54,217 bases of DNA, from IMG/VR virus record IMGVR_UViG_3300024354_000012. The stretch is one strand, 5' to 3'. The notes beneath the pieces are model-generated. The model searched no databases and was not told the DNA's origin. It worked only from the letters and a program-made list of their open reading frames with translations. The position numbers were made by a program, and so were the translations under genes. The DNA comes from an uncultured virus (IMG/VR IMGVR_UViG_3300024354_000012). Its lineage: Duplodnaviria; Heunggongvirae; Uroviricota; Caudoviricetes. Numbering within the stretch: the stretch's first letter is position 1; each line of letters begins with the position of its first letter. This document shows positions 19,443 to 45,319 of the stretch, in pieces.

Positions 19443-20276
19443 ATGAACTACTATAGTACATTAGGTGTTGCGCAAACCGCGTCACAAGATGAGATTAAAA
19501 CTGCGTATCGTAAGCTAGCCATGAAACACCACCCAGATAGAGGTGGTGATCCTAAAAAGTTTCAGGCGATACAAGAAGCTTACGATACACTCAGTGACGA
19601 CGAAAAACGCAGGCAGTATGATAATCCCAATCCGTTCAACAGCATGGGCGGTGGCGGAAATCCTTTTAATAATATGAATCCAGATGACATATTTGGATCA
19701 TTCTTTGGCAGCGGACCTTTCAGTTTCCATTTTGGTAATAGCCCTCAGCCACAACGAAACACCAACATAACAGCCGTCGTAGACATCACACTAGCAGATG
19801 TACTAACAGGCAAAAATATAGACGCACAGGTTAGTTTTAGAAATGGTGATACTAAATTAGTATCTATCAATATACCAGCCGGTGTCGATGATGGTTCACA
19901 GATCAGATATCCAGGTATGGGTGATCATAGCATACCTCGATTTCCACCGGGTGATCTTATAGTATCTGTAAGGATAATACCACACCCTGTATGGCGAAGG
20001 GAAGGACTCGATCTAGTCTGCGATCATAGTGTAGATGTATGGGAAGCACTATTAGGATCTAGCCTCACAGTTACTACATTAGATAATAAGTCATTCACTA
20101 TATCTGTTCCAGCAGGAACACAACCCGACACAGTATTAAGTTGTAGAGGCGAAGGTTTGCCTCATCCTAGGTCAGGGCATAGAGGTAACTTACTAGTTAG
20201 AATAAAAGTGATTATACCTAGGACACTTAGAGAAGATCAAAAACTACTAGTAGAGAAATTAAAAAATGGAATTTAA
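19443..20276 (+). CDS. dnaJ: DnaJ/CbpA-like co-chaperone (no zinc finger)
   Basis: J-domain with HPD, G/F-rich linker, C-terminal domain (IPAGVDDG, GDL, GEGLP). Confidence 0.92.
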   Translation: MNYYSTLGVAQTASQDEIKTAYRKLAMKHHPDRGGDPKKFQAIQEAYDTLSDDEKRRQYDNPNPFNSMGGGGNPFNNMNPDDIFGSFFGSGPFSFHFGNSPQPQRNTNITAVVDITLADVLTGKNIDAQVSFRNGDTKLVSINIPAGVDDGSQIRYPGMGDHSIPRFPPGDLIVSVRIIPHPVWRREGLDLVCDHSVDVWEALLGSSLTVTTLDNKSFTISVPAGTQPDTVLSCRGEGLPHPRSGHRGNLLVRIKVIIPRTLREDQKLLVEKLKNGI

Positions 20277-20760
20277 ATTAGGTGTACACGAAAGTCTAGT
20301 TACTCCTAGTACTAACTGGGCGTTCGGCATAGATGAAGATCCCGAATATCTAGAACAGGCCATGATAGAATTCATGCTTAATAATAATGGTATCGGGCTT
20401 GCTGCTAATCAGGTTGGTATTACTAAAAGAGTATTTGTGATGGGTAGTAAAAACATAGAAGGATTCCCAGAACCCTTTGCGTTATTCAACCCAAAGATAT
20501 TAGAAACTAGCCAGGAAGAAAAACTAGATCAAGAAGGTTGTCTAAGTTATCCAGGACTATATCTAATGGTCAAAAGACCTGAATGGGTCAGAGCTGAATA
20601 CCAAGACAGCAAAGGTAACACACACGAAATTAAAGTAGACGGTTATCTGGCTAAATGTTTCCAACACGAATACGATCACCTAGATGGTATATGTTTTGTT
20701 GACAAAGTCAGTAAACTGAAGTTAGACTTAGCAATGAAGAAACTAAAAAAGAGAAGGTAA
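20266..20760 (+). CDS. def: Peptide deformylase
   Basis: GIGLAANQ, EGCLS, QHEYDHLDG. Confidence 0.95.
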   Translation: MEFKLGVHESLVTPSTNWAFGIDEDPEYLEQAMIEFMLNNNGIGLAANQVGITKRVFVMGSKNIEGFPEPFALFNPKILETSQEEKLDQEGCLSYPGLYLMVKRPEWVRAEYQDSKGNTHEIKVDGYLAKCFQHEYDHLDGICFVDKVSKLKLDLAMKKLKKRR

Positions 20761-20761
20761 T

Positions 20762-23107
20762 ATGTTAGAACCCAGTGAAAAGTTACAAGCGATTTTTGAA
20801 CGTGCTATCGGATTAGCTCAACAACTGTCACACGAATATGTGACATTAGAACATCTTACCTTTGCCATAATGTGCGATGATGACATGATCAAAGCACTAA
20901 AGGAATATGGAGCCAATAGTGATTTTATAAAATCTAATCTAGAACAATTTCTTAAAAATCAACTTAATGAAATACGCACAGACCTTAAAGGTCAAAAACC
21001 CCGAAGGACTGCTAGTGTAGAACGTGTGTTAAATCGCAGTTTCACACAAACACTGTTTAGCGGTAGACAAAAGATCGAAGTAGAAGATGTACTGATTGCG
21101 ATCTTGAGTGAAAGAAAAAGTTTCGCTTTTTATTATCTAACCAAAGGCGGGATTGTCAAAGAAAAATTTATACAATATTGCCAAGGCAAATTTGAAGAAA
21201 CTGACGAAGAAAACATGCCACGCAATATTCATCCATCACAGCTTGACAAGATACTTAACAACTACTGTGTAAATCTTACTCAGATGGCCAAACAAAAGAA
21301 AATCGATCCTGTCATCGGTCGTGATGAAGAAATTGAAAATATACAATTGATTTTGGCTAGACGAACCAAGTCTAATGTACTACTGATCGGTGAACCAGGT
21401 GTTGGTAAGACTGCTATCGCAGAAGGTCTTGCTCGCAAGATCTTTGAAAAGAAAGTACCTAAGTTCCTACACGATCACTTAGTTTATACACTAGACATTT
21501 CAGCACTACTAGCAGGCAGCAAATATCGTGGCGATTTTGAAGAACGTTGGAAAGCGGTGTTGGCAGCTTTAGAAAAGAAAGGCAAGGTGATTTTATTCAT
21601 CGACGAAGCGCACATGATGAGTGGTGCCGGTGCTGCGAATGGTTCTGCTAACGATCTAGCCAATATGCTTAAACCCATGTTGACTAAAGGCACTATGAAG
21701 GTTATTGCTTCTACGACATGGGAAGAATTCCGTAAGCACTTTGAAAAGGATCGCGCATTGATGCGTAGATTCCAAAGAGTGAATGTCGACGAGCCTACAC
21801 CGGAATTGACCGTCAAGATCATGAAGGGCGTTCGTAGATATTATGAACAGCATCACAAAGTACGCATCACAGATGCTGCTATCGAAAATGCTGTTAAACT
21901 ATCTATGAAATATATGCCAGAAAAGAAACTGCCAGATAAAGCTATCGACATCATCGACTGTGCTGCTGCTAGATTTAAAATTAGACCCGATGCAGAAACA
22001 GAAGGCGATGATATCAACATCGTTGATCTAGAACAGATCATGTTTGAAGTCAGCAAAATGACCAAGATGCCGTTTGAAACTGTTTCTGAAAGAGAAAGCA
22101 ACAGTCTTGTAAATCTCGAAAGCAACATGAAGAATACTGTGTTTGGTCAAGAAAAAGCTATCACTAATCTAGTAGACAAGATATTTGTAGCACAGGCAGG
22201 TATGAAGTTGCCTAACAAGCCAGTGGGCTGTTTCTTGTTCGTTGGTCCTACAGGTACAGGTAAAACAGAAACTGCCAAGAAGCTGTCTGAATCACTAGGT
22301 ATTCCATTAGTTAGATTTGACATGAGCGAATACCAAGAGAAACATGCTGTAGCAAAATTGATTGGTGCTCCTCCAGGATATGTAGGCTATGAAGATAACA
22401 CAGGTCTACTTATTACTAAACTACAGGAAACACCTAACTGTGTGTTGCTGTTAGATGAAATCGAAAAGGCACATCAAGACGTTACTAACATTCTGTTACA
22501 GTTGATGGATAACGGTTTTGTTACAGGTAGCAATGGTAAGATGGCCGACGGTCGAAATACTATTTTGATCATGACATCAAACTTGGGTGCTGCTGACAAC
22601 GAACAGAACACTATTGGTTTCGGAGATCTATCCAAGGACGGTGAGGACGACAAAGCAGTTAAGAAGTTCTTTGCCCCTGAATTCCGTAATAGACTCGACA
22701 GTGTTATTAAGTTTGACAAACTGTCTAAAGATACTGTACGTATTATCGTTGACAAGTTTATGAAAGATCTTAACACACAGATCAAAGACAAGTATGTTGA
22801 GATCATTATCGACGATGATGCTAGAGATTGGTTAGCAGACCGTGGTTACAATAGCAAGATGGGTGCCAGACCGTTAGCTAGAGTTATCGATAACGAAATC
22901 AAGAGCCCGCTGAGCCGTAAGATTTTGTTCGGTGAACTTAAAGATGGCGGAAGAGTATTTGTTAGAGTAGAAAATGACCAACTGGTATTCGAAGTAAAAA
23001 ATCTAGGTGACGGTCTTACCAAGCTAGAAAAACGTGCGTTGAAGCAGCATAAGAAAGTATTAGATGGCAAACTATTCGATGACGAAGTACAAAACAACAA
23101 CTCGTAG
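20762..23107 (+). CDS. clpA: ClpA-like AAA+ unfoldase
   Basis: Clp N domain, NBD1 (GEPGVGKT, FIDEAH), NBD2 (GPTGTGKT, LLDEIEKAH), ClpP-docking IGF loop, no long M-domain. Confidence 0.92.
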   Translation: MLEPSEKLQAIFERAIGLAQQLSHEYVTLEHLTFAIMCDDDMIKALKEYGANSDFIKSNLEQFLKNQLNEIRTDLKGQKPRRTASVERVLNRSFTQTLFSGRQKIEVEDVLIAILSERKSFAFYYLTKGGIVKEKFIQYCQGKFEETDEENMPRNIHPSQLDKILNNYCVNLTQMAKQKKIDPVIGRDEEIENIQLILARRTKSNVLLIGEPGVGKTAIAEGLARKIFEKKVPKFLHDHLVYTLDISALLAGSKYRGDFEERWKAVLAALEKKGKVILFIDEAHMMSGAGAANGSANDLANMLKPMLTKGTMKVIASTTWEEFRKHFEKDRALMRRFQRVNVDEPTPELTVKIMKGVRRYYEQHHKVRITDAAIENAVKLSMKYMPEKKLPDKAIDIIDCAAARFKIRPDAETEGDDINIVDLEQIMFEVSKMTKMPFETVSERESNSLVNLESNMKNTVFGQEKAITNLVDKIFVAQAGMKLPNKPVGCFLFVGPTGTGKTETAKKLSESLGIPLVRFDMSEYQEKHAVAKLIGAPPGYVGYEDNTGLLITKLQETPNCVLLLDEIEKAHQDVTNILLQLMDNGFVTGSNGKMADGRNTILIMTSNLGAADNEQNTIGFGDLSKDGEDDKAVKKFFAPEFRNRLDSVIKFDKLSKDTVRIIVDKFMKDLNTQIKDKYVEIIIDDDARDWLADRGYNSKMGARPLARVIDNEIKSPLSRKILFGELKDGGRVFVRVENDQLVFEVKNLGDGLTKLEKRALKQHKKVLDGKLFDDEVQNNNS

Positions 23108-24105: not shown

Positions 24106-24144
24106 GATAAATATAGTATGAATTCACGGCAAGGATCATACTAT
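24106..24144 (+). promoter_or_regulatory. Late promoter GATAAATA plus 9-bp hairpin sequestering the start codon
   Basis: ATAGTATGA (24113-24121) pairs with TCATACTAT (24136-24144); the AAGGA SD is in the loop. Confidence 0.65.
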
Positions 24145-25291
24145 GAAAACATCTGATATTCAAAATACAATAAAAAAACTGTCAGTAATACAGTTCGAAA
24201 CAGCATTAAATCCCAACGACCCGCAAGGCGATTACGCAGCCAAAAAACAGGCACTAGACGATCTAGCAGCAGATCCTGTTGCCAGCAGTGATCCCACAAT
24301 AGCCAAAGCTATAGAACAGAGAAAAGCAGAACTAGATAAAGAAGCTGCTAGCAAAGGCGTGACCAGTCAGGACGCAGACGAAGGGTTTTCTATAGGTGAC
24401 GAGTTTGGTATCAGTTTTAGTGAAGATCTAGAAATTGGCACACATATCGTAGGATTTGCCGAAGATGGTATCGTAGTAGAATTAGATGATCAAGCCATAC
24501 AGATGTTAGAAACACAGGGAGTGAGATTCCTTGAAGGCGAACTAGTTGAAGGTCTTAAAGATCCTAAAGACAATCCGTGCTGGAAAGGCTACCACCCCGT
24601 AGGCACCAAAAAGAAGAACGGCAAGACTGTACCTAACTGTGTGCCTGAAGCTGCTAATCCAGCACAACAAGCTGCGATTGCTATAGCCAAGAAGAAAGCA
24701 GGCAAGACTGAAGATTACAATCCCGAGTATGATGATGAAGCCGGAATGGCCGACAACAATCTAGAAACACTAAGACGTGCTGTAGACGGTTTAGACGATC
24801 TTATACAGACAGGCGATAACTTGCCTGAATGGTGCCAGGAAAAGATCGCTGTAGCTAAAAATATGCTAGTAGCAGTGTGGGATTATATGGAATCAGAAGA
24901 AGCCACACATCAAGAAACAGAAGCCATGAACATGCCATTTGCTGGCGCTGCTGTTGGGCATAAAGAAGGTCCAGCCGGTCAACTGAAAGGCCGCATGAAG
25001 CGTCCGGCTAGCGCAGGAGATCTAGTAGGCGGTGAGAGCATCGAGAATGAAGCCAAGTATCATGGCAAGGAAGTTCCGCTAGGTAAAAAACTTCCCGGTG
25101 ATGTTAAAAAATCTAAAGTCTATGTACGCGATCCAAAGACCGGCAACATTAAAAAAGTAAACTTTGGTGATAAGAAAATGCGTATTAAGAAATCAAATCC
25201 TGCTCGTCGTAAGTCATTTAGAGCAAGACATAATTGCGCTAATCCAGGACCACGCACTAAAGCTCGTTACTGGTCATGTAGGAGCTGGTAA
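24143..25291 (+). CDS. Modular putative head-internal polyprotein
   Basis: Concatenated short modules separated by Glu sites: CWKGYHPVGTKKKNGKTVPNCVPE, AANPAQQAAIAIAKKKAG, LPEWCQEKI, KKVNFGD...ARRKSFRARHNC...KARYWSC. Confidence 0.6.
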   Translation: MKTSDIQNTIKKLSVIQFETALNPNDPQGDYAAKKQALDDLAADPVASSDPTIAKAIEQRKAELDKEAASKGVTSQDADEGFSIGDEFGISFSEDLEIGTHIVGFAEDGIVVELDDQAIQMLETQGVRFLEGELVEGLKDPKDNPCWKGYHPVGTKKKNGKTVPNCVPEAANPAQQAAIAIAKKKAGKTEDYNPEYDDEAGMADNNLETLRRAVDGLDDLIQTGDNLPEWCQEKIAVAKNMLVAVWDYMESEEATHQETEAMNMPFAGAAVGHKEGPAGQLKGRMKRPASAGDLVGGESIENEAKYHGKEVPLGKKLPGDVKKSKVYVRDPKTGNIKKVNFGDKKMRIKKSNPARRKSFRARHNCANPGPRTKARYWSCRSW

Positions 25292-25632
25292 TGAGATTAC
25301 AAGAGCTTTTTGCATCTCTTGAGAAAGAACAAGATCATAGACTAGATCCTGAAATAAACTATCTAGCTGATCTTAAATTTTTCATCGACAACGATAATGA
25401 TATCTTGTCTAAATTTTTCTTTCCTGCTATAAAACAACATAAAGACACTGCGTCACCAGACGACTATCATCACTATGTTGAACCCATTAAAAAGACCATA
25501 GTGATTTATTGTAAGAAACATGATCTCGATGATGTCAAAGATGACATATTCGGTGAAGATGATATTCTAGAACTAGCTAAGAGAATGGCTCAAGAACAAC
25601 ATAGATATATAGACCGAGGCGATTACGAATAA
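25291..25632 (+). CDS. Hypothetical protein with leader MRLQELF
   Basis: TAATG-coupled ORF with the shared N-terminal motif. Confidence 0.7.
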   Translation: MRLQELFASLEKEQDHRLDPEINYLADLKFFIDNDNDILSKFFFPAIKQHKDTASPDDYHHYVEPIKKTIVIYCKKHDLDDVKDDIFGEDDILELAKRMAQEQHRYIDRGDYE

Positions 25633-26723
25633 TGAGACTAAAGCAGTTATGGGAAGATTCGGGAGATTCTATAGCATTCTGTTTTGGTAGAATGAATCCT
25701 CCCACGCGAGGGCATAAAGCTGTGTTTGATACACTAGCAAAAACCAACAAGAACTATAGAATATTCATTAGCCCCGCACAAAAACCCTTAAAAAATAATC
25801 CATTAGACTTTGATACAAAAATCAAATTTATCAGAGTGATGTTTCCAGAACATGCCGCACATGTTTCAGCAGATCCTGGCCTAAACACTATCATGGCTAT
25901 CGCTGCTAAACTGTACGATGAAGGTTACAGGAAAATCACATTCGTAGGTGGCAGTGATAGAGTTGGCACATTCAAAGAGCTACTAGACAAATATAATGGG
26001 GTAGAAATGCCCAACGGCATGTACAACTTTGAAGAAATAAATGTTGTTACTAGCGGAGACAGAGATCCCGATGACGAGGGACTAGCAGGAATTAGTGCTA
26101 GTGGCGCACGTGATGCTGCTAGAGCAGGAGATGTAGAAGCATTCACTGAAATAACAGGTGCAGGCAAGTATGCCAAGCAATTATATGATGCTGTACGTTC
26201 GGGATTAAAAATCAAAGAAGAAGTTAATGAAGGTCCATTAGAACTTAACACTAAAGATCCTGTTGTAGTTATATCTGATCCTAAGACAGGAAAGATACTA
26301 GATAAAATGAATCTGTCTGCCGCTGCTATAAAATATAGATTAGGTCCGCCAGAGAATGTCAAGCAACAATTAGCACATCAAAACTACACTACCATAGGAA
26401 ACTATGTAGTACAGGCACCAATGACAGGACAAGCCGCAGAGGCAATATTAGTAAATGATCCAGAGAAAGGTGCTCAGATCCGTCCAGACGGTGGTATGGG
26501 AACTTGGGATGAAAAATCTCTAGTATCTAACCTAAGCCGTAAATTTGAATCTATACAAGAGTTTCTCAAATACGGTAACTACGAAAATATCGAATACGTA
26601 TTATACAAAGCAGGTGCTATGGAATCTATGATAACAGCGTTAGCACAATACAATAGATTCAAACAGAAACAAGGCAAACGCCCCATAGGCAGAGGCCGAG
26701 AAATAGATATGGGGAAATACTGA
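25632..26723 (+). CDS. Cytidyltransferase-like (HxGH-family) nucleotidyltransferase with leader and C-terminal modules
   Basis: FCFGRMNPPTRGH, VGGSDRV, ISAS..R; N-terminus MRLKQLWE. Confidence 0.8.
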   Translation: MRLKQLWEDSGDSIAFCFGRMNPPTRGHKAVFDTLAKTNKNYRIFISPAQKPLKNNPLDFDTKIKFIRVMFPEHAAHVSADPGLNTIMAIAAKLYDEGYRKITFVGGSDRVGTFKELLDKYNGVEMPNGMYNFEEINVVTSGDRDPDDEGLAGISASGARDAARAGDVEAFTEITGAGKYAKQLYDAVRSGLKIKEEVNEGPLELNTKDPVVVISDPKTGKILDKMNLSAAAIKYRLGPPENVKQQLAHQNYTTIGNYVVQAPMTGQAAEAILVNDPEKGAQIRPDGGMGTWDEKSLVSNLSRKFESIQEFLKYGNYENIEYVLYKAGAMESMITALAQYNRFKQKQGKRPIGRGREIDMGKY

Positions 26724-26908
26724 TGCGTCTACGTGACTTATTTGAAAACGACTTACCTAAAAAGAGAGATCCTAATTGGAAAACTCTACAGGCCAAGCGT
26801 ACTAGTGGTGCTGCTGGTGTTCATCGCGATAAGAAAAAAGAACAGAAGCAAGGCTACGAAAAACATAAAAGTAAATCTACAGAAGAATCTCAAGATGGAA
26901 CTCAGTGA
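26723..26908 (+). CDS. Small basic protein with leader MRLRDLFE
   Basis: TGATG-coupled; K-rich SGAAGVHRDKKK. Confidence 0.65.
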   Translation: MRLRDLFENDLPKKRDPNWKTLQAKRTSGAAGVHRDKKKEQKQGYEKHKSKSTEESQDGTQ

Positions 26909-27098
26909 ATTAAAACGCCTAGCAGGCATAACAGAATTTAAGGGCTATCAGCCATACGGCGGTAGCAATATAAGTATTACTGGCAATGAAAAAGGCGAAC
27001 TGATGAAAAAACACAATATCAAACCAGGAACACCTGAATGGTTCCAGTTATGGTTTAGCAAGCCTTATCTAACCGGTGAAAAACCTGTAGGAAAATAA
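26895..27098 (+). CDS. Small protein MELSELKRLAGITE...IKPGTPEWFQLWF
   Basis: Start re-placed at ATG 26895; the track ORF from 26733 overlaps the previous gene. Confidence 0.65.
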   Translation: MELSELKRLAGITEFKGYQPYGGSNISITGNEKGELMKKHNIKPGTPEWFQLWFSKPYLTGEKPVGK

Positions 27099-27099
27099 A

Positions 27100-27444
27100 A
27101 TGCGTTGGAAAGAAATAACAGAAGGTTTGAAAAAAGAAAATACCACAGTACATGGCGCTAAAACCTTTCCTGCGATCAAAGGATGGACTTATGATATGTA
27201 TAGATGGGGTGTGGCTGCAGCTGGTAGCCCAGATCCACTACATGACATGGCTAAAGAAAGCGATATCGCTAATAATCTAGTAGCTGTACAATTCAGTGAT
27301 GGCGATAGAGAAATCATAGACCACAGCGCAAAAAGAATTGGTTTGAAAACACAAAAAATAGGTCCCGACAAAAGAAAAGAAAGCGAACACATCAACAATG
27401 CTAGTCCTGTAGCTAATGTAAAAAGAAATCGTTTCGGAGTTTAA
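27100..27444 (+). CDS. Hypothetical protein with leader MRWKEITE
   Basis: AGGA SD; shared leader motif. Confidence 0.7.
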
Positions 27445-27445
27445 C

Positions 27446-27769
27446 ATGGTAGAAATCACTCCAGCAGCAAAAGTCAAAATACAAGATTTACTTTCAGAAG
27501 AAAATAATGAAAATCTAAAACTTCGTACCTTTGTACAAGGTGGAGGATGTAGTGGGTTTAGTTATGGGTTTACTTTTGATGATGTAAAAAACGATGATGA
27601 TTTTTCTATAGATATCGGACGTTGGCAAGTGCTTATCGATTCTATGAGCATGATGTATCTAGAAGGTGCCAGCATAGATTACAAAGAAGATATCATGGGC
27701 AGTCAATTTGTTATCAGCAATCCTAATGCGCAAAGCACATGTGGTTGCGGGAGCAGTTTTTCAGTATGA
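27446..27769 (+). CDS. erpA: A-type Fe-S cluster carrier (ErpA/IscA)
   Basis: GGGCSGFSY and [14 protein letters not shown] with three conserved Cys. Confidence 0.92.
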
Positions 27770-27837
27770 ACGAGTATCCAGTATATCCAGAGGATGATGG
27801 TTATGACCGTCCGAGAAACCCTTATAGCCCTGTTTAA
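27766..27837 (+). CDS. Possible 23-aa micro-[26 protein letters not shown]
   Basis: ATGA overlap with the erpA stop and GGGAG upstream; an overlapping alternative ORF exists at 27794-27904. Confidence 0.35.
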
Positions 27838-27890
27838 AGACATACTAGAAGGAATTATTAGATTTGGTTGTGGCCTAGCAGGAATAATTT

Positions 27891-28985
27891 ATGAGAGCAA
27901 GTGAATTAAAATTACCGCAGGGAATGGAAGTCTATGTTGACATGGACGGTGTCCTCGCAGATTTTTTCTCAGAATATGCCAAACTAGCCGGTATCGAATC
28001 AGGCAACTACAGAGACATTCCTCCAGCTAAAGCAGATCCAACGTTAAACAAGATGATAGGCACTGACTTCTTTTATAGATTGCCTAAGTTTCCTACCGCT
28101 GACAAACTACTAGATATCGTTGTCGATGCTGCTGGCAGCTATAATATCTGTTCAAGCCCTCTCAGAGGCGATCACGAAAATTCCGGTGTACAAAAAAGAC
28201 GCTGGATAGAAAAACATCTAGCAGTAAAACCTAAAAATATTTTTATAGTAGCTAACAAAGCCAAGTACGCAGTCAATGCCAATGGCATGCCTAATGTCTT
28301 AATAGATGATAGAGGTAGCAACATTTCATCCTGGGAAGCAGCAGGCGGTATAGGTATCAAATATCAAGCTGACGAAGATACACTTAAAAAAGTATTAGAT
28401 GGGTTGAAACGTGCCCGTCGTGTTGGTCAAGGAGAAGAGCCTCACGAACCACAACAGCTAATCAGCAAAGATAGAGGCGGCAGCAATGCTATCGCTACTG
28501 CCAAAGACGAAAGTATCGAAGAATCAAGAAGATCTGGGTTTTATTCTGTACACAAGTTCTTAACAAAATACAATAGATTCGACCCTATAGGCAGTCCTAC
28601 TAAGTTTTCCGGAAGTGCTGTCGGCAAGACTTTGGACTATCTCAAACAGACTAACATGCCAGTAAAGGTAACTATCAATGATCATAAAGGTGAATTTGAT
28701 AGTGTGATTATCGAACCGGGCGATCACGTAAAACGTGCTGTCGAAAGACTGGGTTTCATAGATGACAGTCCGGATGTAGCATTAGACGTTAAAGAAGTTA
28801 GCAAGCAAGGTGTGGCGGAAAACTTTGCTGATGGCAAAGGACCAGGTCGCCCAGGTGATAGCCAACGCCATGGAATACCTAAAAAAGCCACTATGGCTGA
28901 ATTAGAAAAAGCCTCACACGCTAAAGGACGTAAAGGACAGCTAGCCCGTTGGCAAATAAATATGAGACGGGGTAGAAAGAAATGA
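27891..28985 (+). CDS. 5'(3')-deoxyribonucleotidase (NT5C, HAD) with leader and C-terminal modules
   Basis: VYVDMDGVLADF, LIDDRGSNISSWEAAGGIG; extra modules follow SIEE and QGVAE. Confidence 0.8.
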   Translation: MRASELKLPQGMEVYVDMDGVLADFFSEYAKLAGIESGNYRDIPPAKADPTLNKMIGTDFFYRLPKFPTADKLLDIVVDAAGSYNICSSPLRGDHENSGVQKRRWIEKHLAVKPKNIFIVANKAKYAVNANGMPNVLIDDRGSNISSWEAAGGIGIKYQADEDTLKKVLDGLKRARRVGQGEEPHEPQQLISKDRGGSNAIATAKDESIEESRRSGFYSVHKFLTKYNRFDPIGSPTKFSGSAVGKTLDYLKQTNMPVKVTINDHKGEFDSVIIEPGDHVKRAVERLGFIDDSPDVALDVKEVSKQGVAENFADGKGPGRPGDSQRHGIPKKATMAELEKASHAKGRKGQLARWQINMRRGRKK

Positions 28986-29167
28986 GATTTGGCGAGCTAG
29001 TAAATGATTATAGATATTATGGAGCTAGGATCAAGGTAAAACTTAATGGATCTACTTCTTACATTGATACAGCAGTTAACGCTAAAAACAGAGAAATGGC
29101 TAGGAGATTGTTTAAAGTAATGTACGGGCCCAGCTCTATGGTAACTAATGTACGAGAAATCAAATGA
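28982..29167 (+). CDS. Small protein with leader MRFGELV
   Basis: ATGA-coupled on both sides. Confidence 0.65.
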   Translation: MRFGELVNDYRYYGARIKVKLNGSTSYIDTAVNAKNREMARRLFKVMYGPSSMVTNVREIK

Positions 29168-29355
29168 AATTAGCAGAACTACTAGCAAAACCATCAAAAA
29201 TCAAGGAATCTGCTACAGCAGGTGCTACTAGCGCAGGAAATATAGCGTCTGTAGCCAACCCTAACATAGCTAGATCTAAGAAAAAAGTAAAAACAGCTAA
29301 TGCCCTTGATACCAAGGACGTAAGCATATTCGGCGGTCCGGCTTTCAAAAGATAA
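29164..29355 (+). CDS. Small protein MKLAELL...IKE/SATAGATSAGNIASV
   Basis: ATGA-coupled; shared leader motif. Confidence 0.65.
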   Translation: MKLAELLAKPSKIKESATAGATSAGNIASVANPNIARSKKKVKTANALDTKDVSIFGGPAFKR

Positions 29356-29358
29356 ATA
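29351..29358 (+). promoter_or_regulatory. T4-type late promoter (GATAAATA)
   Basis: Upstream of the 411-aa modular protein. Confidence 0.6.
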
Positions 29359-29417
29359 TACGTATGAAAAGAAAGCTCATGGAGCCAACAAGTTAATGAA
29401 GACCCAAGGAAAATAAC

Positions 29418-30653
29418 ATGGATTTTAAAGCACTCATCCAAAAAATAGACAGTATTGATATTCCAGCGACGCCTGTAGCAGCACCAAAGCTAGCTGATCC
29501 CGTCGTACTAGAAGAAAGCATGGCTATCAAGGTTCTAGCAGGAGTTACTCCGCTAACAGAATCAATTCTAGCTGAAAAGAAAGCCAAGCCCGATTTCCTA
29601 GATATGGATAAAGATGGCAACAAGAAAGAGCCAATGAAAAAGGCAGCTAAAGACGCTAAGGTCAAAGAAGCTTCCGAACACAAAGACAAGGATTCATTTG
29701 ATAAGAGTGCTAAACCAGGTGATACTGTCAAAACTTCTAAGGGCACATTGACCAAGACCAAGACTGGTGTCAAGCATGAGCGCAAATATACAGAAGGTAT
29801 GGAAAGCACAGCAGAAATGGCTCATCACCATGCTTCAGAATATGCCAAGCATCACAAAGCAGGAAACCTAGAGATGTGTATGCATCACAAAGAATCCTGT
29901 GAAAAATGCGGTGGTAAGATTTCACACGGTGAAATGGGTGAATGCTACCATCAACACGCAGGCATGAACCAAGGTCAACCATACAATGTACAAGAAGGTG
30001 TTATCGGCGCAGGAGTAGGCGCTGGCCTAGGAGCTCTAGTCGGTGGACCAGTTGGTGCTGTCGTAGGTGGCGGTTTGGGTCAAGCTGTAACCAATTCTAT
30101 GACCAACGAAACTAAAAAGTGTACCTGTGAAACTGTAGGCAAGACCAAATGCTCAGTACATGGTTCGATGAAAGAAGCTTCTACAGGAGATTATTCTGCC
30201 AAGAAAGCTCGCGCTGGTAAAGACATTGGTAAGCCAGGTAAGAACTTTTCTAAGATTGCTAAGTCAGCAGGTGGTGGAGAAAAAGGCAAGAAGATTGCCG
30301 GCGCTGTGTTAAAGAAACAACGTGCCAACGAAGCTGCCAAACCAGATTATATCGATCTAGACAAAGATGGTAACAAGAAAGAGCCAATGAAGAAGGCAGC
30401 TAAGGATGCTAAAACCAAGAAGCCTATGAAAGAATCAGTAGAAACAAAACTGACCTTTGTCAATGCTCTTGCTATCGTTAAAGAAAGCAATTACACAAAA
30501 CAGATCGATCCTAAAGATGAAGCACTGTGGGATTGGGCTCAACGTGTAGCAAAAAACAAATTCACTGAATCAGCAAAAGCAGATGCGTTTGCCGCTATGA
30601 CCTATGAAAGAATGGGCGGTGATTGGGACGTCTGCGATACTATTACAGAATAA
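29418..30653 (+). CDS. Modular, K-rich putative head-internal/prohead-core polyprotein
   Basis: Many xxE/(S,A,G) junctions, a duplicated DxDxDG peptide, a His/Cys-rich module and a glycine zipper. Confidence 0.6.
   Translation: MDFKALIQKIDSIDIPATPVAAPKLADPVVLEESMAIKVLAGVTPLTESILAEKKAKPDFLDMDKDGNKKEPMKKAAKDAKVKEASEHKDKDSFDKSAKPGDTVKTSKGTLTKTKTGVKHERKYTEGMESTAEMAHHHASEYAKHHKAGNLEMCMHHKESCEKCGGKISHGEMGECYHQHAGMNQGQPYNVQEGVIGAGVGAGLGALVGGPVGAVVGGGLGQAVTNSMTNETKKCTCETVGKTKCSVHGSMKEASTGDYSAKKARAGKDIGKPGKNFSKIAKSAGGGEKGKKIAGAVLKKQRANEAAKPDYIDLDKDGNKKEPMKKAAKDAKTKKPMKESVETKLTFVNALAIVKESNYTKQIDPKDEALWDWAQRVAKNKFTESAKADAFAAMTYERMGGDWDVCDTITE
29583..30413 (+). repeat. Duplicated 26-aa DxDxDG module (29583-29660 and 30336-30413)
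   Basis: AKPDFLDMDKDGNKKEPMKKAAKDAK vs AKPDYIDLDKDGNKKEPMKKAAKDAK (23/26 identical). Confidence 0.9.
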
Positions 30654-35531: not shown

Positions 35532-35919
35532 AAATATTACTACCAACAGCCGTTACTTAAATGTACAAGGCGGTTCTCCTATGAGCACATATATCAGTCC
35601 AGGCAGTTTGTCTGCTGGTTCTCTAAGATACAATCCGAATAATTCGGCCGTAGAAGTCTATGACGGAAATTCATGGAAAGAAATGGGTATGAGCTATGCC
35701 AGCGTGAATCTTTCTTCAGAAGCAGAAGCATTGCTGGATTGGGCACGTCAGAGACGCAACGAAGAACAAGAATATGAACGGTTGGCTTCTACTAATCAAG
35801 CTGTTAAAATAGCTATGGAGAATGTAGAAAAAGCCAAACAACAATTAACAATAACAGCAAAACTAGCCAAAGATACATATCACGATCATGGCGAAGTTAT
35901 GGAACAGGCAAGCCCTTAA
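35524..35919 (+). CDS. Hypothetical protein
   Basis: Start re-placed at MIKN (AAAGGTG SD); LRYNP...VEVYDGNSW plus coiled coil. Confidence 0.65.
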   Translation: MIKNITTNSRYLNVQGGSPMSTYISPGSLSAGSLRYNPNNSAVEVYDGNSWKEMGMSYASVNLSSEAEALLDWARQRRNEEQEYERLASTNQAVKIAMENVEKAKQQLTITAKLAKDTYHDHGEVMEQASP

Positions 35920-35920
35920 T

Positions 35921-37444
35921 ATGAACCCACCAGTCAACTTAACACCTTTACAAAAAGATTACGCAGTATATCTGCCAGCTATCAGCTGTTTCTTTAGCAC
36001 GTATATCAGTAAACAACGTTTCGAACAATTCGTTCCCGACGATCGTATTCCACAAGGTTTCGATCGTGGTATCGAAGGTATGAACTTTCTTAATCCTGAA
36101 CAAGGGTACTTTACTTACAAGTATGGTCTTTATTCCGCAGGACATGCTACACTAGATCTTAACAAGACTATGACCATGGATGCGATGATCCAAGATCGCG
36201 ATCGTGCTAACACTGTTATCGTTGGAGATTCCGGTGGATATCAGATTGGTAAAGGTGTTCTTAAGTTTGACTGGCAGAACTTTGAAGGCAAGGCTGCTAA
36301 TGATGTTCGTGATAAGATCCTTAATTGGCTAGAGCTAACTGCTGATTGGTCTATGTTGCTAGACGTTCCGACATGGGCTTGTGATCATATACACAGTCCA
36401 AAGACAGGTCTTAAGAGCTTCCAAGACTGTTTAGATAAAACTCTACATAATAACGATTACTTTATCCGTAATCGACTAGGACAAACTAAGTTTCTAAACG
36501 TGTTACAAGGCAGCGACTGGGAAACAGCCGATGCTTGGTATCAGGCTGTCAAACATCTTCCTACCGAAGGTTGGGCGATGGGTGGTAAGAACATGTGCGA
36601 CATGGAAATCGCACTTAAACGTCTTATCATATTGCGAGATGAAAAGCTGTTAGACGATCGTAATTGGATGCACTTCTTGGGTACAGCCCAATTAGATTGG
36701 TCTTGCTATTTGACTTCTATTCAAAGACAGATTAGGAAGAACGTAAATGAAAACTTTACCATATCTTTTGATTGCGCATCACCGTTTATCGCAACAGCAC
36801 ACGGGCTCGTCTACACAAACGCACAGCACACAAACAAACGCTGGTCAGTTATCATGGACAAAGCCCCAGACAACAAAGCCCTTAGCCAGGCTTTTCATGT
36901 CCCGTTCCCCTTCGAATCAGAAATAGGACGCAGGCTGTCAATCGGAGACATCTGCTGGTACAAACCAGGTATGTTAAACAAAGTCGGCAAAGAAGGCAAG
37001 ACAAGCTGGGACAGCTTTGGTTATGCGCTTATGATGGCACATAACACATATTGCCATATCGTTGCTGTACAACGTGCTAACAATCTCATGGATATCGAAA
37101 CTAAGAAGATACAGCCTGATTGGAAACTATGGCGTAAGGTCAAAGAAAACGATATGAGCGATGAATACTCTGATTGGGTTCCTCGCAATATCCTGTATTT
37201 TGATAGATTTGTCGAAGAGTTATTCAAATCAGAAACTCCGATGCAGATGATCGAACAGGCAAGACCTATGCTCAATGACATGATGGGTATGAGATTGAAA
37301 GGTGGTGTTGCTAAGAACACATACAATTCGCTGTTTGAAGAAGATCAAAAAACAGGAACAGTAGAAGACTTCATGGATCCAAATGATGAAGCACTTTTGG
37401 AATTAGAAGAACTCTATCACGAGCAGGAGGCTCAGCATGTATGA
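35921..37444 (+). CDS. TGT-fold guanine transglycosylase (DpdA-like, 7-deazaguanine insertion)
   Basis: GDSGGYQ, MLLDVP, NVLQG, GWAMGG, HFLG, SFDCASP and late HN are collinear with TGT motifs. It lacks the tRNA-TGT CxCxxC zinc site and sits near folE/queE. Confidence 0.8.
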   Translation: MNPPVNLTPLQKDYAVYLPAISCFFSTYISKQRFEQFVPDDRIPQGFDRGIEGMNFLNPEQGYFTYKYGLYSAGHATLDLNKTMTMDAMIQDRDRANTVIVGDSGGYQIGKGVLKFDWQNFEGKAANDVRDKILNWLELTADWSMLLDVPTWACDHIHSPKTGLKSFQDCLDKTLHNNDYFIRNRLGQTKFLNVLQGSDWETADAWYQAVKHLPTEGWAMGGKNMCDMEIALKRLIILRDEKLLDDRNWMHFLGTAQLDWSCYLTSIQRQIRKNVNENFTISFDCASPFIATAHGLVYTNAQHTNKRWSVIMDKAPDNKALSQAFHVPFPFESEIGRRLSIGDICWYKPGMLNKVGKEGKTSWDSFGYALMMAHNTYCHIVAVQRANNLMDIETKKIQPDWKLWRKVKENDMSDEYSDWVPRNILYFDRFVEELFKSETPMQMIEQARPMLNDMMGMRLKGGVAKNTYNSLFEEDQKTGTVEDFMDPNDEALLELEELYHEQEAQHV

Positions 37445-37652
37445 GAATCGAATCAAGCACTTACAAGAAGTACATCAACACCTAGATAACCAAATCGATA
37501 AAATGGAGCGAAATGGTAATTTCAAAGATGAAGAACTAGCTGCTTTGAAAAAGAAAAGGTTGTTTTTTAGAGACGAAATTGCTAAACTAGAACGTAAGCA
37601 ATGGGAACACGATCACGATACATTGGAACACTGGGATGACGAAGAAAGATAA
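37437..37652 (+). CDS. DUF465/YdcH-like coiled-coil protein
   Basis: HQHLDNQI...LKKKRLFFRDEI. Confidence 0.7.
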   Translation: MYENRIKHLQEVHQHLDNQIDKMERNGNFKDEELAALKKKRLFFRDEIAKLERKQWEHDHDTLEHWDDEER

Positions 37653-37866
37653 ACCAATTCCTCCGGCACAATTTGCTCTCAATAGGACTCAAGTCGAAAA
37701 ACTATCTAAAATGGCCGCGCACTTCAAAGAAGTAGAATGGTTTACCTTAGAGGAAAGCCATAGTAGCGGTATCGGTCCTACTGTCGTAGTTAAATTCAAT
37801 CTGTTCAACGATAACGACAAAGATAACGACACTACCGTCGATATCACTGACGTTTCAACTTGGTGA
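37636..37866 (+). CDS. Hypothetical protein
   Basis: Packed ORF ending DITDVSTW. Confidence 0.6.
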   Translation: MTKKDKPIPPAQFALNRTQVEKLSKMAAHFKEVEWFTLEESHSSGIGPTVVVKFNLFNDNDKDNDTTVDITDVSTW

Positions 37867-37869
37867 AAT

Positions 37870-38415
37870 ATGAAAAGAGATTATTCATCTGGACAAGCAG
37901 ACGACGCTGTATTTTTCACAGGTATTGAAGTAGAAAAAACTCCTGCCTTTGGATTAAAGACTTTATTCGTTGTAGGAGTACAGCCTACTAGCAAAATTCA
38001 TGCGGCAGCAGTAGCATATGGCTGTGAACATATCTATTTTGGCGCTAATCAAAGTTTTCCTAAGCTACAAGTCAACGACGGTGACGGATGGCGTCCATGG
38101 GAAGATATGATCCAAACAATGTTACGAAGTGGTCTTAGAGACGGACATCAATACCTATGTACTTTAGATCTTGATGTTAGTTGCGTAGAAGGTCTTCTTG
38201 AATCTGCGTGTTGCGAATATACAAATTTCATTCCGCAGATATCTGTAAAGATCCCCTATCTACAACAATTAGGCTATAATGCCACAATTAAAATCGACGA
38301 TAGAGATTTTAATGCTACTAATCACGGAGTGTGGTGCCATAACCTCCATGACCTACTGGGAAGAGATCGCTTCACTAGTTGGACCGAATATGGTAAAGAT
38401 GAGATTATAAAGTAA
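37870..38415 (+). CDS. Hypothetical protein in deazaguanine cluster
   Basis: GIEVEKTPAFGLKTLFV, HIYFGANQSF, KIDDRDF..TNHGVWCH. Confidence 0.7.
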   Translation: MKRDYSSGQADDAVFFTGIEVEKTPAFGLKTLFVVGVQPTSKIHAAAVAYGCEHIYFGANQSFPKLQVNDGDGWRPWEDMIQTMLRSGLRDGHQYLCTLDLDVSCVEGLLESACCEYTNFIPQISVKIPYLQQLGYNATIKIDDRDFNATNHGVWCHNLHDLLGRDRFTSWTEYGKDEIIK

Positions 38416-38744
38416 TGGCAACTGGACAATATGCTGTCGAAACAACAGCAAAAACACAAAGGCAAGTAATGAAACGATCTTTTAAACAAAAATTTCGATC
38501 TTGGTTATTCGACGAAGAAAGTTCTCAACCAATAGCTTCTCTCGGAATGGTCGAAGAAGCTAAACTACAATCAGAAGGTATGCGACTACAAATCTACAAG
38601 GCATCTGGCGGTTATGTAGTTGAAACTAGAAGCTATGATCGTTTAAAGGATCGTAGCGGTTGTAAGATGTTCGTTATCAAAGAAGAAGACGACCTAGGCA
38701 CAGAACTAGGAAAGATCGTCATGATGGAGGCATTAAGAGGATGA
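38415..38744 (+). CDS. Hypothetical protein
   Basis: TAATG-coupled ORF. Confidence 0.65.
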   Translation: MATGQYAVETTAKTQRQVMKRSFKQKFRSWLFDEESSQPIASLGMVEEAKLQSEGMRLQIYKASGGYVVETRSYDRLKDRSGCKMFVIKEEDDLGTELGKIVMMEALRG

Positions 38745-39136
38745 ATATTCGGCAGGACGTCCGCCCTAACAAAATGATTTGGGTCACTTTTCGCAAAGAA
38801 GGTATTCATAAATATCCAGCAGCCTTGGAAGATCCAAGTCTAGCTACTGGAGATGAATATGACGTATCGTTTTTGGGTTACCCTCATCGCCACATCTTTC
38901 ATTTCAGGGTGTGGATCAATGTGCTCCACAATGATAGGGACATCGAGTTCATCCAATTCAAACGATGGCTCGAGTCGCTGTATAATGGTCAAGGTGCCGT
39001 TCTAAGCCTTGACTACAAGAGTTGTGAGATGATGAGCGATGATTTACACGCTCAGATTATCGCAAAGTACCCAGGCCGCGAGGTTTGGATTGAGATCTCC
39101 GAAGACGGAGAAAATGGTTCATTCATCAAATATTAA
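38741..39136 (+). CDS. T-fold QueD-like protein (LxxxHRHxF type, DpdL-like)
   Basis: EGIHKY...LGYPHRHIFH...SCEMM...EDGENG; lacks the canonical QueD CxxxHGH. Confidence 0.7.
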   Translation: MNIRQDVRPNKMIWVTFRKEGIHKYPAALEDPSLATGDEYDVSFLGYPHRHIFHFRVWINVLHNDRDIEFIQFKRWLESLYNGQGAVLSLDYKSCEMMSDDLHAQIIAKYPGREVWIEISEDGENGSFIKY

Positions 39137-39150
39137 AACAAGAGGCTATA

Positions 39151-39417
39151 ATGTCTAAGAACTACAAGGAATATAAGTATTTCGCCAATCGCCCAGATGT
39201 CGTCAAGATTTTTGATGACTTAGATGCTTATCTCGACTTTTGTCGATTTGAGCTTCGTCCTTATAATCCTGCTGATCTTTATAGAAAAGACAGCGAACAC
39301 TATAGGGCATTTCTAAACTCTCAACGCCATAGCAATGGTGGTTATCATAATAACCACAATCATCAACGTAGAGATTTTAGACACAACAATAAGCCAAGAA
39401 ACTTCACAAGACAATGA
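39151..39417 (+). CDS. Hypothetical protein with H/N/R-rich tail
   Basis: GAGG SD; IFDDLDAYLDFCRFEL. Confidence 0.65.
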   Translation: MSKNYKEYKYFANRPDVVKIFDDLDAYLDFCRFELRPYNPADLYRKDSEHYRAFLNSQRHSNGGYHNNHNHQRRDFRHNNKPRNFTRQ

Positions 39418-40505
39418 CAGTATTTTTAGTTGATTTAGAAGCTGTCGAGACCAGGTACACGGGACAATGGAAGGCTCATGTACCTGAGCTCTTACGAAAA
39501 AGGGTACAAAATGTTCAAATTATCGATGGCCCTACGGATATTCCTGCTGCCACTACGCCTGGTGCTTTTCTCAATTTTGGTGGCACCAATGTATATAAGT
39601 CTAGTCAAGTTGAGAAGATTAGCAGACTATTTTGCGCCGGATCAGTGGGCCCTGGTGATCATTTTATTTTTACAGATGCGTGGCATCCTGGGATCATTAA
39701 CATCAAATACATGAGTGAGTTACTTGGCATTCCTGTCAAGATACACGCTCTATGGCATGCTGGTAGTTATGATCCTCAGGACTTCTTAGGGCGTCTTATT
39801 GGTAACGCAGGTTGGGTAAGACATGCCGAAAAGAGTTTTTTCCACGCGATTGATCACAATTATTTTGCTACAGAATTTCATATCAAGATGTTCGATGACA
39901 ATCTCTTGAATGATGAGATTTTTGAAAATCCATGGAGGCATGAGGATCTAAAAAATTATCGTGATGATGGTAAGATAATTCGATCTGGTTGGCCTATGGA
40001 GTATATGCCAGACACTTTGATCATGTACAAAAACATGCCAAAGAAAAATGTCATTCTTTTCCCACATCGACTTGCTCCAGAAAAGCAATTAGACATATTC
40101 ATGGACTTGAAGAAGCATCTTCCTCAATACGAATTCCGTGTATGTCAAGAATATCCATTGACCAAGAATGAATATCACAATATGCTGGGCGAAGCTAAAC
40201 TAGTGTTTAGTGCTAATTTACAAGAAACCTTAGGCATAAGTTGGTACGAAGGCGCACTAGTAGATGCTATTCCAATGGTGCCTGATAGACTCAGCTATAG
40301 CGAAATGGCATTAGATACATTTAAGTATCCGAGCAAATGGACAGAGTCTTTCGAATCGTACGACATCCATAGAAAAGAAGTCTGCCATAAGATTATCCAG
40401 TACATGGAAAATTACGAAAAATTCTTACCTAGCCTAAATAAACAAGTAGATATGTTAACTAAAGACTTCTTCAGTTGCGATAACTTGCTGAAGATGTTAA
40501 AATAA
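39414..40505 (+). CDS. GT-B (GT4-like) glycosyltransferase
   Basis: WHAGSYD, FPHRLAPEKQ, Ex7E motif ETLGISWYE, PDRLSYSE. Confidence 0.8.
   Translation: MTVFLVDLEAVETRYTGQWKAHVPELLRKRVQNVQIIDGPTDIPAATTPGAFLNFGGTNVYKSSQVEKISRLFCAGSVGPGDHFIFTDAWHPGIINIKYMSELLGIPVKIHALWHAGSYDPQDFLGRLIGNAGWVRHAEKSFFHAIDHNYFATEFHIKMFDDNLLNDEIFENPWRHEDLKNYRDDGKIIRSGWPMEYMPDTLIMYKNMPKKNVILFPHRLAPEKQLDIFMDLKKHLPQYEFRVCQEYPLTKNEYHNMLGEAKLVFSANLQETLGISWYEGALVDAIPMVPDRLSYSEMALDTFKYPSKWTESFESYDIHRKEVCHKIIQYMENYEKFLPSLNKQVDMLTKDFFSCDNLLKMLK
40475..40503 (+). promoter_or_regulatory. Sigma70-type promoter TTGCGA-N17-TAAAAT with extended -10 TG
   Basis: Upstream of ORF 40543 and folE. Confidence 0.55.
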
Positions 40506-40542
40506 TACATATGTCATCCACGACACAAACTCGGAGAAAAAA

Positions 40543-40941
40543 ATGTTAAAGTTTAAAACAATAGAAGATATAACTTCTACTAAAGAAGAATATGATCGAT
40601 TATACAATATGGATCATATTTTTGTAATTAGAAGCAAGAAACCCGATGACAACGATTTAACTAAAGCACTGTCGATATTCGAAAGAGACAACTTTGACTG
40701 GACTTCAACCCTCAGAGGTCCGTACAAAGGTCAACCAAAAATCACAAACGAATTAAATTATCAAGATTATGCTCACGGTTACGTGTTTGAAGTTAGTGAT
40801 GATAAGTTAATTAATTTCGAAAGAAAAGCATTCATGCTTATTATGACAACAGATTTTATCGTTGAAAAATTAGATATAGTAAGATCTAAAAAAGAAGCAT
40901 CAGACGAAATGTTTTACTCCCTATTTGAGGAACAAGAATAA
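40543..40941 (+). CDS. Hypothetical protein with C-terminal FYSLFE motif
   Basis: GGAGA SD; coupled to folE. Confidence 0.7.
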   Translation: MLKFKTIEDITSTKEEYDRLYNMDHIFVIRSKKPDDNDLTKALSIFERDNFDWTSTLRGPYKGQPKITNELNYQDYAHGYVFEVSDDKLINFERKAFMLIMTTDFIVEKLDIVRSKKEASDEMFYSLFEEQE

Positions 40942-41777
40942 TGACAAAAGAATTTACACCAGATCCTGTTATTAACGCAGAACTCAATAGAGAATTTATT
41001 AAGCAAGAATACGAACCTTTAGGTAAACCTGTGTTCATCAAGAAAGAAACAGGGTTAGATGCTATGAACGGCGACGGCGGATATGAACTAGCTAAACTAA
41101 GTGATCATTTACGTTTTAAAATGAAACGTGAAAACAAAAGATTCTGGGCCGGCGATAACATTAGCGATTTCCTAAGCGACGGTGATAAAGAAAAACTTAT
41201 CGACGAAGCAACTCTAGCATTTGAAAAAGTCTTAGATGTCTTGTTGATCGATCGCGAAAACGATCCCAATAGTAAAGGCACAGCTCGTCGCCTTGCTAAG
41301 ATGTACTTTAACGAAATAATGGCAGGAAGATATGACCCAGCACCAGACGCAACAGCATTTCCCAATGATTCGCAGGACCGTTACGAAGGTATGCTTGTTG
41401 TTCGCAGTGAGCTTCGCAGTATGTGTAGCCATCATCATCAACCCGTTACTGGCGTTGCTTATATTGGCATTATTGCCGCCGAGAAACTTATCGGACTCAG
41501 CAAGTACACACGTATCGCACAATGGTGTGCCCGTCGAGGTACTCTCCAGGAGGAACTGGCTAATGATATTGCTCGGGAGATCGAACGTGCCACAGGCGCC
41601 AAAGACCTAGGCGTTTATATTCAAGCCACTCATGGTTGCTGTGAGAATCGTGGCATCATGGCACACTCTAGTCTAACACAGACTACTGTACTAAAGGGTG
41701 CGTTTAAAGATGATCCGGGTACAAAGAAAGAGTTTATGGACAATATTAAACTTCAACAAGAGTTCGCTCCACGATAA
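40941..41777 (+). CDS. folE: GTP cyclohydrolase I
   Basis: TARRLAKMY, SMCSHHHQP, GLSKYTRI, LQEEL, HGCCENRG. Confidence 0.93.
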   Translation: MTKEFTPDPVINAELNREFIKQEYEPLGKPVFIKKETGLDAMNGDGGYELAKLSDHLRFKMKRENKRFWAGDNISDFLSDGDKEKLIDEATLAFEKVLDVLLIDRENDPNSKGTARRLAKMYFNEIMAGRYDPAPDATAFPNDSQDRYEGMLVVRSELRSMCSHHHQPVTGVAYIGIIAAEKLIGLSKYTRIAQWCARRGTLQEELANDIAREIERATGAKDLGVYIQATHGCCENRGIMAHSSLTQTTVLKGAFKDDPGTKKEFMDNIKLQQEFAPR

Positions 41778-41788
41778 AGGATAAAACA

Positions 41789-42746: not shown

Positions 42747-42973
42747 TAGACGAAAAAGTAAAATTACATTGTACAGACAACGGCAAAGACCTCGATGGAC
42801 ATATTCTGTCTTACAAGCCTAAAGCATATCTAGAAGTAGCTGTACAAACATTAAAGATTCGTATGGCGTATCAAGAACGCACTAAGGTATTTGTAGGCAG
42901 CGTAGGCGGAAAAGAATTCGTTCTAAAAGAATCCAATCTGCCTACCGAACGCAAGGAGTTTAGTAGAAAATGA
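42743..42973 (+). CDS. Hypothetical protein
   Basis: ATGA-coupled; start re-placed to 42743. Confidence 0.6.
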   Translation: MIDEKVKLHCTDNGKDLDGHILSYKPKAYLEVAVQTLKIRMAYQERTKVFVGSVGGKEFVLKESNLPTERKEFSRK

Positions 42974-45315: not shown

Positions 45316-45319
45316 AACA

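Follow-up and report, generated by a model that had tools for sequence, protein, structure and literature searches.

A candidate cargo polyprotein with glutamate joints encoded by an uncultured tailed virus

Protease-cut polyproteins are textbook knowledge for RNA viruses. In the T4 reports, as far as their available text goes, the gp21 protease is described as cutting after L/I-X-E (PMC9026906); internal proteins (IPs) are cut once, while proteins cut many times are mostly discarded (PMC9026906, bioRxiv 10.1101/2021.01.19.427310) and are identified as scaffolds (PMC9958956, PMC7411985). Polyvalent proteins, the closest concept to the protein described here, are presented in the available text of PMC5512222 as multidomain proteins that are encoded near late genes and thought to be packaged and processed. 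For PeSL elements, recombination at short repeats has been proposed (PMC2839356, in the text available). No description of head-protease-cut cargo polyproteins in tailed phages, or of the QGVAEG joint treated below, was found among the articles listed in searches of open-access PMC and bioRxiv.

Layout and genomic setting of the 382-aa ORF

The window analysed, a stretch of 54,217 nucleotides from an uncultured virus (IMG/VR IMGVR_UViG_3300024354_000012), sits in a 238-kb virus record that is about 67% complete. Translation of 24143-25291 on the plus strand gives a 382-aa protein carrying all six junctions that a sequence-only reading had named earlier, and the opposite strand was closed in a reading-frame check. 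Contigs from two DNA runs, possibly of the source sample, match the ORF over its full length with 0 differences, as do contigs from two RNA-library runs, which by themselves do not prove transcription, its timing or its strand. No joint within the ORF was seen in the contigs of the four runs, from which rare variants drop out. The protein consists of a leader, seven modules and short acidic linkers (residues 254-260 and 299-303), divided at Glu joints:

24106..24113, plus strand: GATAAATA, candidate T4-type late promoter, 36 bases before the start codon
24143..25291, plus strand: 382-aa modular ORF, probable polyprotein (ORF call, homologue comparison and model)
24143..24199, plus strand: leader or propeptide, residues 1-19, ending IQFE, net charge +1; diverged in this phage
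24200..24382, plus strand: M1, residues 20-80, predicted helical hairpin, net charge -6; pLDDT about 92 over most of its length
24383..24550, plus strand: M2, residues 81-136, predicted acidic small beta domain and helix, net charge -13; internal VVE and MLE motifs
24551..24649, plus strand: M3, residues 137-169, basic CWxGY...NC beta-hairpin (predicted) with a Cys pair, net charge +4; matches in phage records
24650..24712, plus strand: M4, residues 170-190, predicted 21-aa Ala/Lys helix, net charge +3; defined from homologue contexts
24713..24901, plus strand: M5, residues 191-253, predicted acidic helical hairpin, net charge -13; defined from homologue contexts
24923..25036, plus strand: M6, residues 261-298, Gly-rich and poorly structured, net charge +2; acidic linkers on both sides
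25052..25291, plus strand: M7, residues 304-382, net charge +21, conserved His-x-Cys...Cys; almost always C-terminal

The six junctions are thus real, albeit their list was incomplete: the joint at E80 (DADE/GFS) and both acidic linkers had been missed. The alternation of acidic and very basic modules claimed in the same reading holds roughly, with M7 as the only very basic module. The two modules with Cys pairs noted there correspond to M3 and M7 (two Cys each; M5 has one). The alignment-based model of the protein (119 rows) reached a mean pLDDT of 73 and a pTM of 0.35, with separate confidently predicted domains. Confidence is low at 132-139 and over most of 265-301; no dip is present at E19 or E169, and one predicted helix spans 229-261 and hence runs through E253-E260. 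A single-sequence fold was uninformative (pLDDT 47).

Database comparison did not name any module. Pfam returned zero families for the protein at E<=0.1, peptidase or other, PHROGs gave families of unknown function only, each covering one part, and no solved homologue was found in the PDB by sequence; neither PHROGs nor the PDB matched the protein to T4 IPs. Searches with the model found nothing in the PDB at E<=0.001 with Foldseek, generic helical hairpins only with VIA-align (best Z 8.8, M2, M3 and M7 being barely tested), and 8 BFVD matches at E<=0.001, every one uncharacterised. The ESM Atlas placed M7 in hypothetical clusters, and its matches of M2 to a PilZ-like beta domain were weak and fell below the bar. 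The label 'HVA1 family' carried by one Roseobacter-phage copy of M7 is not reproduced by Pfam on the present protein. The DNA-condensing or anti-defence roles proposed for the pieces consequently lack support from Pfam, PDB and fold matches. A second copy of any module was not found in the genome.

M3 matches 334 phage records and M7 matches 3708 representatives of 50%-identity clusters at E<=0.001. M7 is strongly basic and retains its His-x-Cys...Cys residues (His/Cys/Cys in 362 of 368 matches), and our guess is therefore that it binds nucleic acids and a metal. M7 occurs as a stand-alone gene in two records named spindle-shaped viruses of Nitrosopumilaceae (L515:398-649 and L519:398-649) and thus reaches beyond tailed phages. 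In pelagiphage Kolga it is found three genes upstream of a putative head morphogenesis gene, and in gp55 of Roseobacter phage CRP-6 (L520:338-1015) it is fused to another domain, which we take to be XkdF-like (putative head protease).

The genome encodes a Peptidase S77 of the gp21 family (PF03420, E=5e-26, above the Pfam cut-off) and, judged from its sequence, is that of a T4-type jumbo phage with an S77 protease. The protease frame, at about 147450-148075 of the 238-kb record, has no ATG ahead of the Pfam match (147506-147946), and a GTG near 147450 is its probable start. Genes for portal, scaffold and capsid can be read in the same record, with labels drawn from sequence and position, and its scaffold-like genes are acidic. 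The N-terminal part of the capsid protein aligns weakly with T4 gp23 (E=0.015); its putative cut site lies at LSE/S, about 12 residues downstream of the T4 cut position.

The 382-aa gene lies at a long distance from the head genes, in a region of replication and chaperone genes. At 19443-23107 and 35888-46168 lie genes that we take, from their sequence, to be DnaJ-like, peptide deformylase-like and ClpA-like, together with a run presumably resembling 7-deazaguanine/queuosine pathway genes. The ATAAATA element at -36 of the start codon is a candidate T4-type late promoter by its likeness to the T4 element. Of 245 ORFs, 35 have ATAAATA in the 80 nt ahead of them, and many of these 35 look structural; the 238 kb contain only 40 copies, counting both strands. 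Outside the window, genes at 136214 and 236012 of the record combine ATAAATA with a CTS-like start; a third, at 145598, does so by eye only and failed the leader pattern described below. A scan for sigma-70 promoters and terminators yielded nothing useful.

Glutamate joints and shuffling of modules in homologues

Among the best 150 M7 representatives, taken from separate 50%-identity clusters and including one fragment of the gene studied here, Glu directly precedes the module in 149 (background 10.6%) and L, V, M or I occupies P3 in 133 (background 19%), while positions farther upstream are unconserved. In non-redundant contexts Glu stands at P1 of M4 in 34/35 and of M7 in 187/192 cases, and at P1 of M5 in 27/30 contexts of the pattern used; for M3 and M5 the distance to the nearest Glu varies because their N-terminal extensions are variable. 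The form [LIVM]-x-E was counted in 89/98 contexts for M1, 18/24 for M3, 20/28 for M4, 21/30 for M5 and 151/180 for M7, where the search pattern itself required Glu for M1 and M3 and Glu or Asp for M4. A hydrophobic P3 is accordingly seen in 70-91% of non-redundant contexts at these five joints, as compared with 2060/7146 (28.8%) for all Glu. At the level of sequence, the family joints fit the L/I-X-E motif published for T4 (PMC9026906, in its available text) if V and M are allowed at P3.

The joints of the 382-aa protein itself follow this form less closely. Only LVE136 and VPE169 match [LIVM]-x-E, whereas QFE19, ADE80, KTE190, ETE260 and ENE303 do not, and some of the joints may therefore be relics. 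E19 and E303 have a hydrophobic residue at P4; E80, E190 and E260 have none. Three more [LIVM]-x-E motifs lie inside M2 and M5.

Two natural controls, both read from sequence, fix the predicted cut positions: modules adjacent to leaders and Met starts in small viruses. M3, M4, M5 and M7 are also found directly behind CTS-like leaders of 8-11 residues ending in Glu, and there their first residue is the same as the first residue after the internal Glu of the 382-aa protein. One such leader, ahead of M7 in locus L018, shares 6 of 10 positions with the published T4 CTS (bioRxiv 10.1101/2021.01.19.427310, available text); the 19-aa leader of the present protein failed the CTS pattern. In small viruses, 11 M7 copies drawn from 30 records were translated, and 7 of these begin Met-Ala-x-Tyr-x-Gly, exactly at the predicted cut. 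Two others are stand-alone with a diverged start, one carries a 14-residue extension with no Glu at the joint, and the CRP-6 gp55 copy is a fusion whose acidic extension has a Glu near the place of the joint. An S77 protease was found in 0 of 5 small-virus genomes with M7 tested. In cultured large phages, M7 is preceded by [LM]-x-E in 4/4 examined, and S77 is present in all four (5/5 including S-CREM2).

The beads-on-a-string layout was also tested against the ends of ungapped alignments, and 648 of 1391 ends fell within 4 residues of the six junctions named earlier. Random position sets reached this value in 3 of 5000 trials and random draws from the Glu residues of the protein in 80 of 5000, and the layout proposed by the sequence-only reading thus stands above chance. 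With nine junctions, a set picked after homologues had been seen, 904/1391 ends lay nearby, a number equalled by 0/5000 position sets and 1/5000 Glu sets.

The module-by-module search suggested in that reading recovered shuffled orders with Glu at the joints. Among 557 proteins matching a module HMM, a pool biased to close relatives, 48 module architectures were distinguished. Reversed orders were counted for M2/M3 (3), M2/M4 (2), M3/M4 (11), M3/M5 (10), M3/M6 (7) and M4/M5 (2), with M4 before M3 in 11 cases and after it in 41. M1 is the first of the modules in every architecture, and within this pool no reversal was seen for M1 or M7 with any module, for M5-M6 or for M4-M6. Matches among annotated phage records are to single modules, and none spans 80% of the protein. 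For M5, a locus 84% identical in DNA joins the module to unrelated upstream sequence at the same Glu. Judged from the homologues and from the low pTM and separate domains of the model, the modules are neither always collinear nor parts of one fold.

A codon-fixed joint and the downstream gene cluster

In part of the family the joint is also conserved as DNA. Among loci selected by protein similarity only, 56 of 77 non-redundant GVAE contexts use the codons GTG GCG, as against 0.99 expected; the same codons are used in 2/85 cases of GVA followed by another residue, in 18/1001 cases of VA elsewhere and in 9/150 cases of xVAE. A 17-base form of the joint was located at 153 sites in 130 loci, with 133 unrelated flanks upstream and 142 downstream. 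The QGVAEG frame is open in 129/133, and the spacing of neighbouring joints is a multiple of three in 123/124 cases up to 700 nt (131/137 overall). Collection-wide counts of the fixed joint and of a synonymous control are not comparable, as both are lower bounds and some control matches are themselves family joints. The 80 bases that follow a joint recur elsewhere with unrelated sequence ahead of them; the break then falls at Glu in 153 of 180 pairs, although the pairs are not independent of one another. Several of them are 94-100% identical downstream of the joint and have only 14-18 bases in common upstream. Five related records, chosen partly for holding the joint, have 2-4 QGVAEG copies each, on one strand, and 0 of the reversed control. 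Most joints are without the DNA repeat.

The ORF at 24143-25291 has no copy of the QGVAEG joint, and for this gene the DNA joint is therefore context rather than anatomy. The genome's single copy of the codon-fixed QGVAE joint lies further downstream, within a run of genes several of which have CTS-like leaders:

25291..30653, plus strand: downstream gene run, several genes with CTS-like leaders (profile matches and leader pattern)
28806..28820, plus strand: codon-fixed QGVAE joint, single copy in the genome, inside the ORF at 27891-28985

Behind this copy, a 5'-nucleotidase-like enzyme carries a small basic module as an appendage; other loci have this module after unrelated upstream sequence, with the break at the same Glu. 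Matches to PF00589 and PF00078 were not found in the genome itself (about 67% complete), nor were PF00589, PF00239 and PF00078 found in the five related records, four of which are at least 90% complete. As neither a tyrosine or serine recombinase nor a reverse transcriptase was found, module exchange through general recombination at the short repeat is favoured; an unknown or host recombinase acting at the QGVAEG joint is possible.

In the downstream cluster, the leader pattern is found in 4 of 11 genes (24143-29418) versus 6 of 234 elsewhere (Fisher P=4e-4); the pattern is post hoc, having been written after the sequences were seen, and the 382-aa gene fails it. The gene at 25632-26723 (plus strand) is cytidylyltransferase-like; it starts with a CTS-like leader and has modules added after VNE, one of which (GPLELNTKDP...) resembles a QGVAE-bounded cassette in locus L372. 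The ORF at 27891-28985 (plus strand) is the 5'-nucleotidase-like modular gene. The 63-aa ORF at 29164-29355 (plus strand) contains IKE followed by a close copy of the sequence after LSE in the major capsid protein; this peptide occurs in 28 contexts in related loci, 27 of them directly after Glu and often right behind a CTS-like leader, and the ORF may encode a mimic of the capsid N-arm that is packaged. The 411-aa ORF at 29418-30653 (plus strand) contains seven [LIVM]-x-E motifs, each followed by a small residue, as well as a Lys/Asp-rich stretch that is repeated internally and a segment rich in His and Cys; from its sequence it is probably a second polyprotein. A related phage, seen in three runs, joins the 26895 gene almost directly to the 27891 gene, without the genes between (27058-27891); the cluster therefore varies by whole genes too.

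Interpretation and relation to described systems

Proteins sharing M3 with the 382-aa protein have been detected in virions. S-CREM2 ORF160 (M3 HMM, E 6e-12) and S-SZBM1 ORF139 (E 1e-13), both Glu-jointed strings, were reported from CsCl-purified particles, the former with 7 unique peptides and 13.1% coverage (PMC10665884) and the latter with 4 peptides and 10.5% (PMC9146016). M3 is all that the two have in common with the present protein, the available published tables give no peptide positions, and the authors of the S-CREM2 study allow for co-purification (PMC10665884). According to the available text, both virion proteomes also include a cytidylyltransferase (PMC10665884, PMC9146016), which is the PHROGs label of the gene at 25632. 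S-CREM1 carries the M3-bearing ORF219 (PMC9964418, available text).

The family is modular and shuffled, its Glu joints are gp21-like, leader-adjacent and Met starts coincide, and the genome encodes the cognate protease. We consider it probable, on these sequence comparisons, that the 382-aa protein is a cargo polyprotein of the prohead core cut by the phage's own head protease. It would be synthesised late and carried into the prohead core by its N-terminal part, and the gp21-family serine protease would cut after Glu at most joints during head maturation. Cutting would free M7 (basic, 79 aa, His/Cys), M3 (Cys-pair hairpin), M4 (short basic helix) and the acidic helical modules. By analogy with T4 IPs, the basic pieces would most likely remain with the packaged DNA and might leave the head together with it on ejection, the leader and the acidic linkers being discarded. 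In part of the family, exchange would take place at the short repeated coding joint, probably by the phage's general recombination. Because each joint would be a cut site, modules could be gained, lost and reordered in frame without harm to their neighbours. The release of separate peptides by the head protease, as put forward in the sequence-only reading, is in this way supported by comparison as far as the polyprotein is concerned (shuffling, CTS-adjacent and Met starts, S77 in the genome), with the cutting itself as a prediction.

The acidic M2 and M5, with their internal [LIVM]-x-E motifs, and the acidic scaffold-like genes of the genome would also suit a dispensable prohead-core component like T4 gp67, gp68 or gp22, whose cut pieces would be degraded and leave the head; in T4, many-fragment cutting is described for core proteins (PMC9026906, available text). 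This explanation appears unlikely, given that M7 exists alone with the same N-terminus in small viruses and retains His/Cys/Cys in 362/368 matches, that M3-bearing proteins were found in purified virions (PMC10665884, PMC9146016, available text), and that enzymes, the cytidylyltransferase among them, are bordered by the same joints. Alternatively, the protein might remain uncut and work whole, its Glu joints being relics of gene fusion or favoured points of recombination (GAAG core). Several of its joints are indeed non-canonical, some polyvalent proteins are described as transferred at full length (PMC5512222, available text), and silent positions of the QGVAE joint are conserved, so that DNA-level forces do act on joints. 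Still, Glu precedes M7 in 149/150 unrelated upstream contexts, and the hydrophobic P3 is spelled by four different residues, which makes the pattern a protein-level one; relic joints would moreover be expected to decay, and most joints have no DNA repeat. An uncut chain is thus judged quite unlikely. The protein might instead be cut by another protease or act in the cytoplasm rather than the head, which would agree with the distance of the gene from the head genes and its replication and chaperone neighbours. This is nonetheless very improbable: the joints carry an S77-type motif, a head role is indicated by both the candidate late-promoter motif and the neighbouring genes with CTS-like leaders, and Glu-jointed M7 accompanies S77 in the cultured phages checked.

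If the cargo-polyprotein reading is true, one gene loads several tiny proteins into the virus head, each module is a candidate injected protein with a predictable N-terminus, and a very large class of hypothetical genes (3708 clusters for M7, 334 phage records for M3) needs annotation module by module. A wider proposal, tentative and rather doubtful, is that T4-type aquatic phages possess an in-frame cassette system with a shared library of well over 100 micro-proteins, in which the short coding joint would be both a preferred crossover point of the DNA and the head-protease site. The pieces would then be injected effectors (DNA-protecting, anti-defence or host-takeover), and the protein described here would be one string with worn joints.

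Among described systems, the 382-aa protein is closest in kind to T4 IPI, IPII, IPIII and Alt, to which it is likened by an S77 protease in the genome, predicted cuts after Glu with a hydrophobic P3 in the family (PMC9026906, PMC9958956), and likewise by the short N-terminal leaders of related proteins, predicted small basic products and a variable gene cluster (bioRxiv 10.1101/2021.01.19.427310). In the available text of these sources, however, the T4 IPs are separate genes with one cut each (Alt at both ends), whereas the present protein has seven modules and internal joints; its kind of module also moves among leader-adjacent, internal and enzyme-fused positions, unlike the T4 IPs. As it has internal joints in place of a single leader cut, it is classed as a variant of the T4 internal proteins and not a member. 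Many predicted post-Glu cuts by a prohead protease are a likeness to T4 gp22, gp67 and gp68 and to head proteins of phiKZ and SPN3US, where the cuts strip propeptides or destroy the scaffold, while the pieces considered here are conserved units that also occur as independent genes. Polyvalent proteins differ in that their processing is credited to peptidases embedded in the same polypeptide (zincin or assemblin-like) and in that most of their domains are enzymes (PMC5512222, available text), in contrast to modules of 21-79 aa with no Pfam match, peptidase or otherwise. Shuffling of PeSLs and IP loci is similar in its short-repeat recombination with no dedicated integrase identified, and PeSLs are described, in the available text, as intergenic promoter-terminator elements that move whole genes (PMC2839356); the joint in the relatives of the present protein, unlike PeSLs, lies inside a reading frame and also spells a protease-like site. 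As in an integron-like cassette system, a repeated DNA site bounding exchangeable cassettes is present in these relatives.
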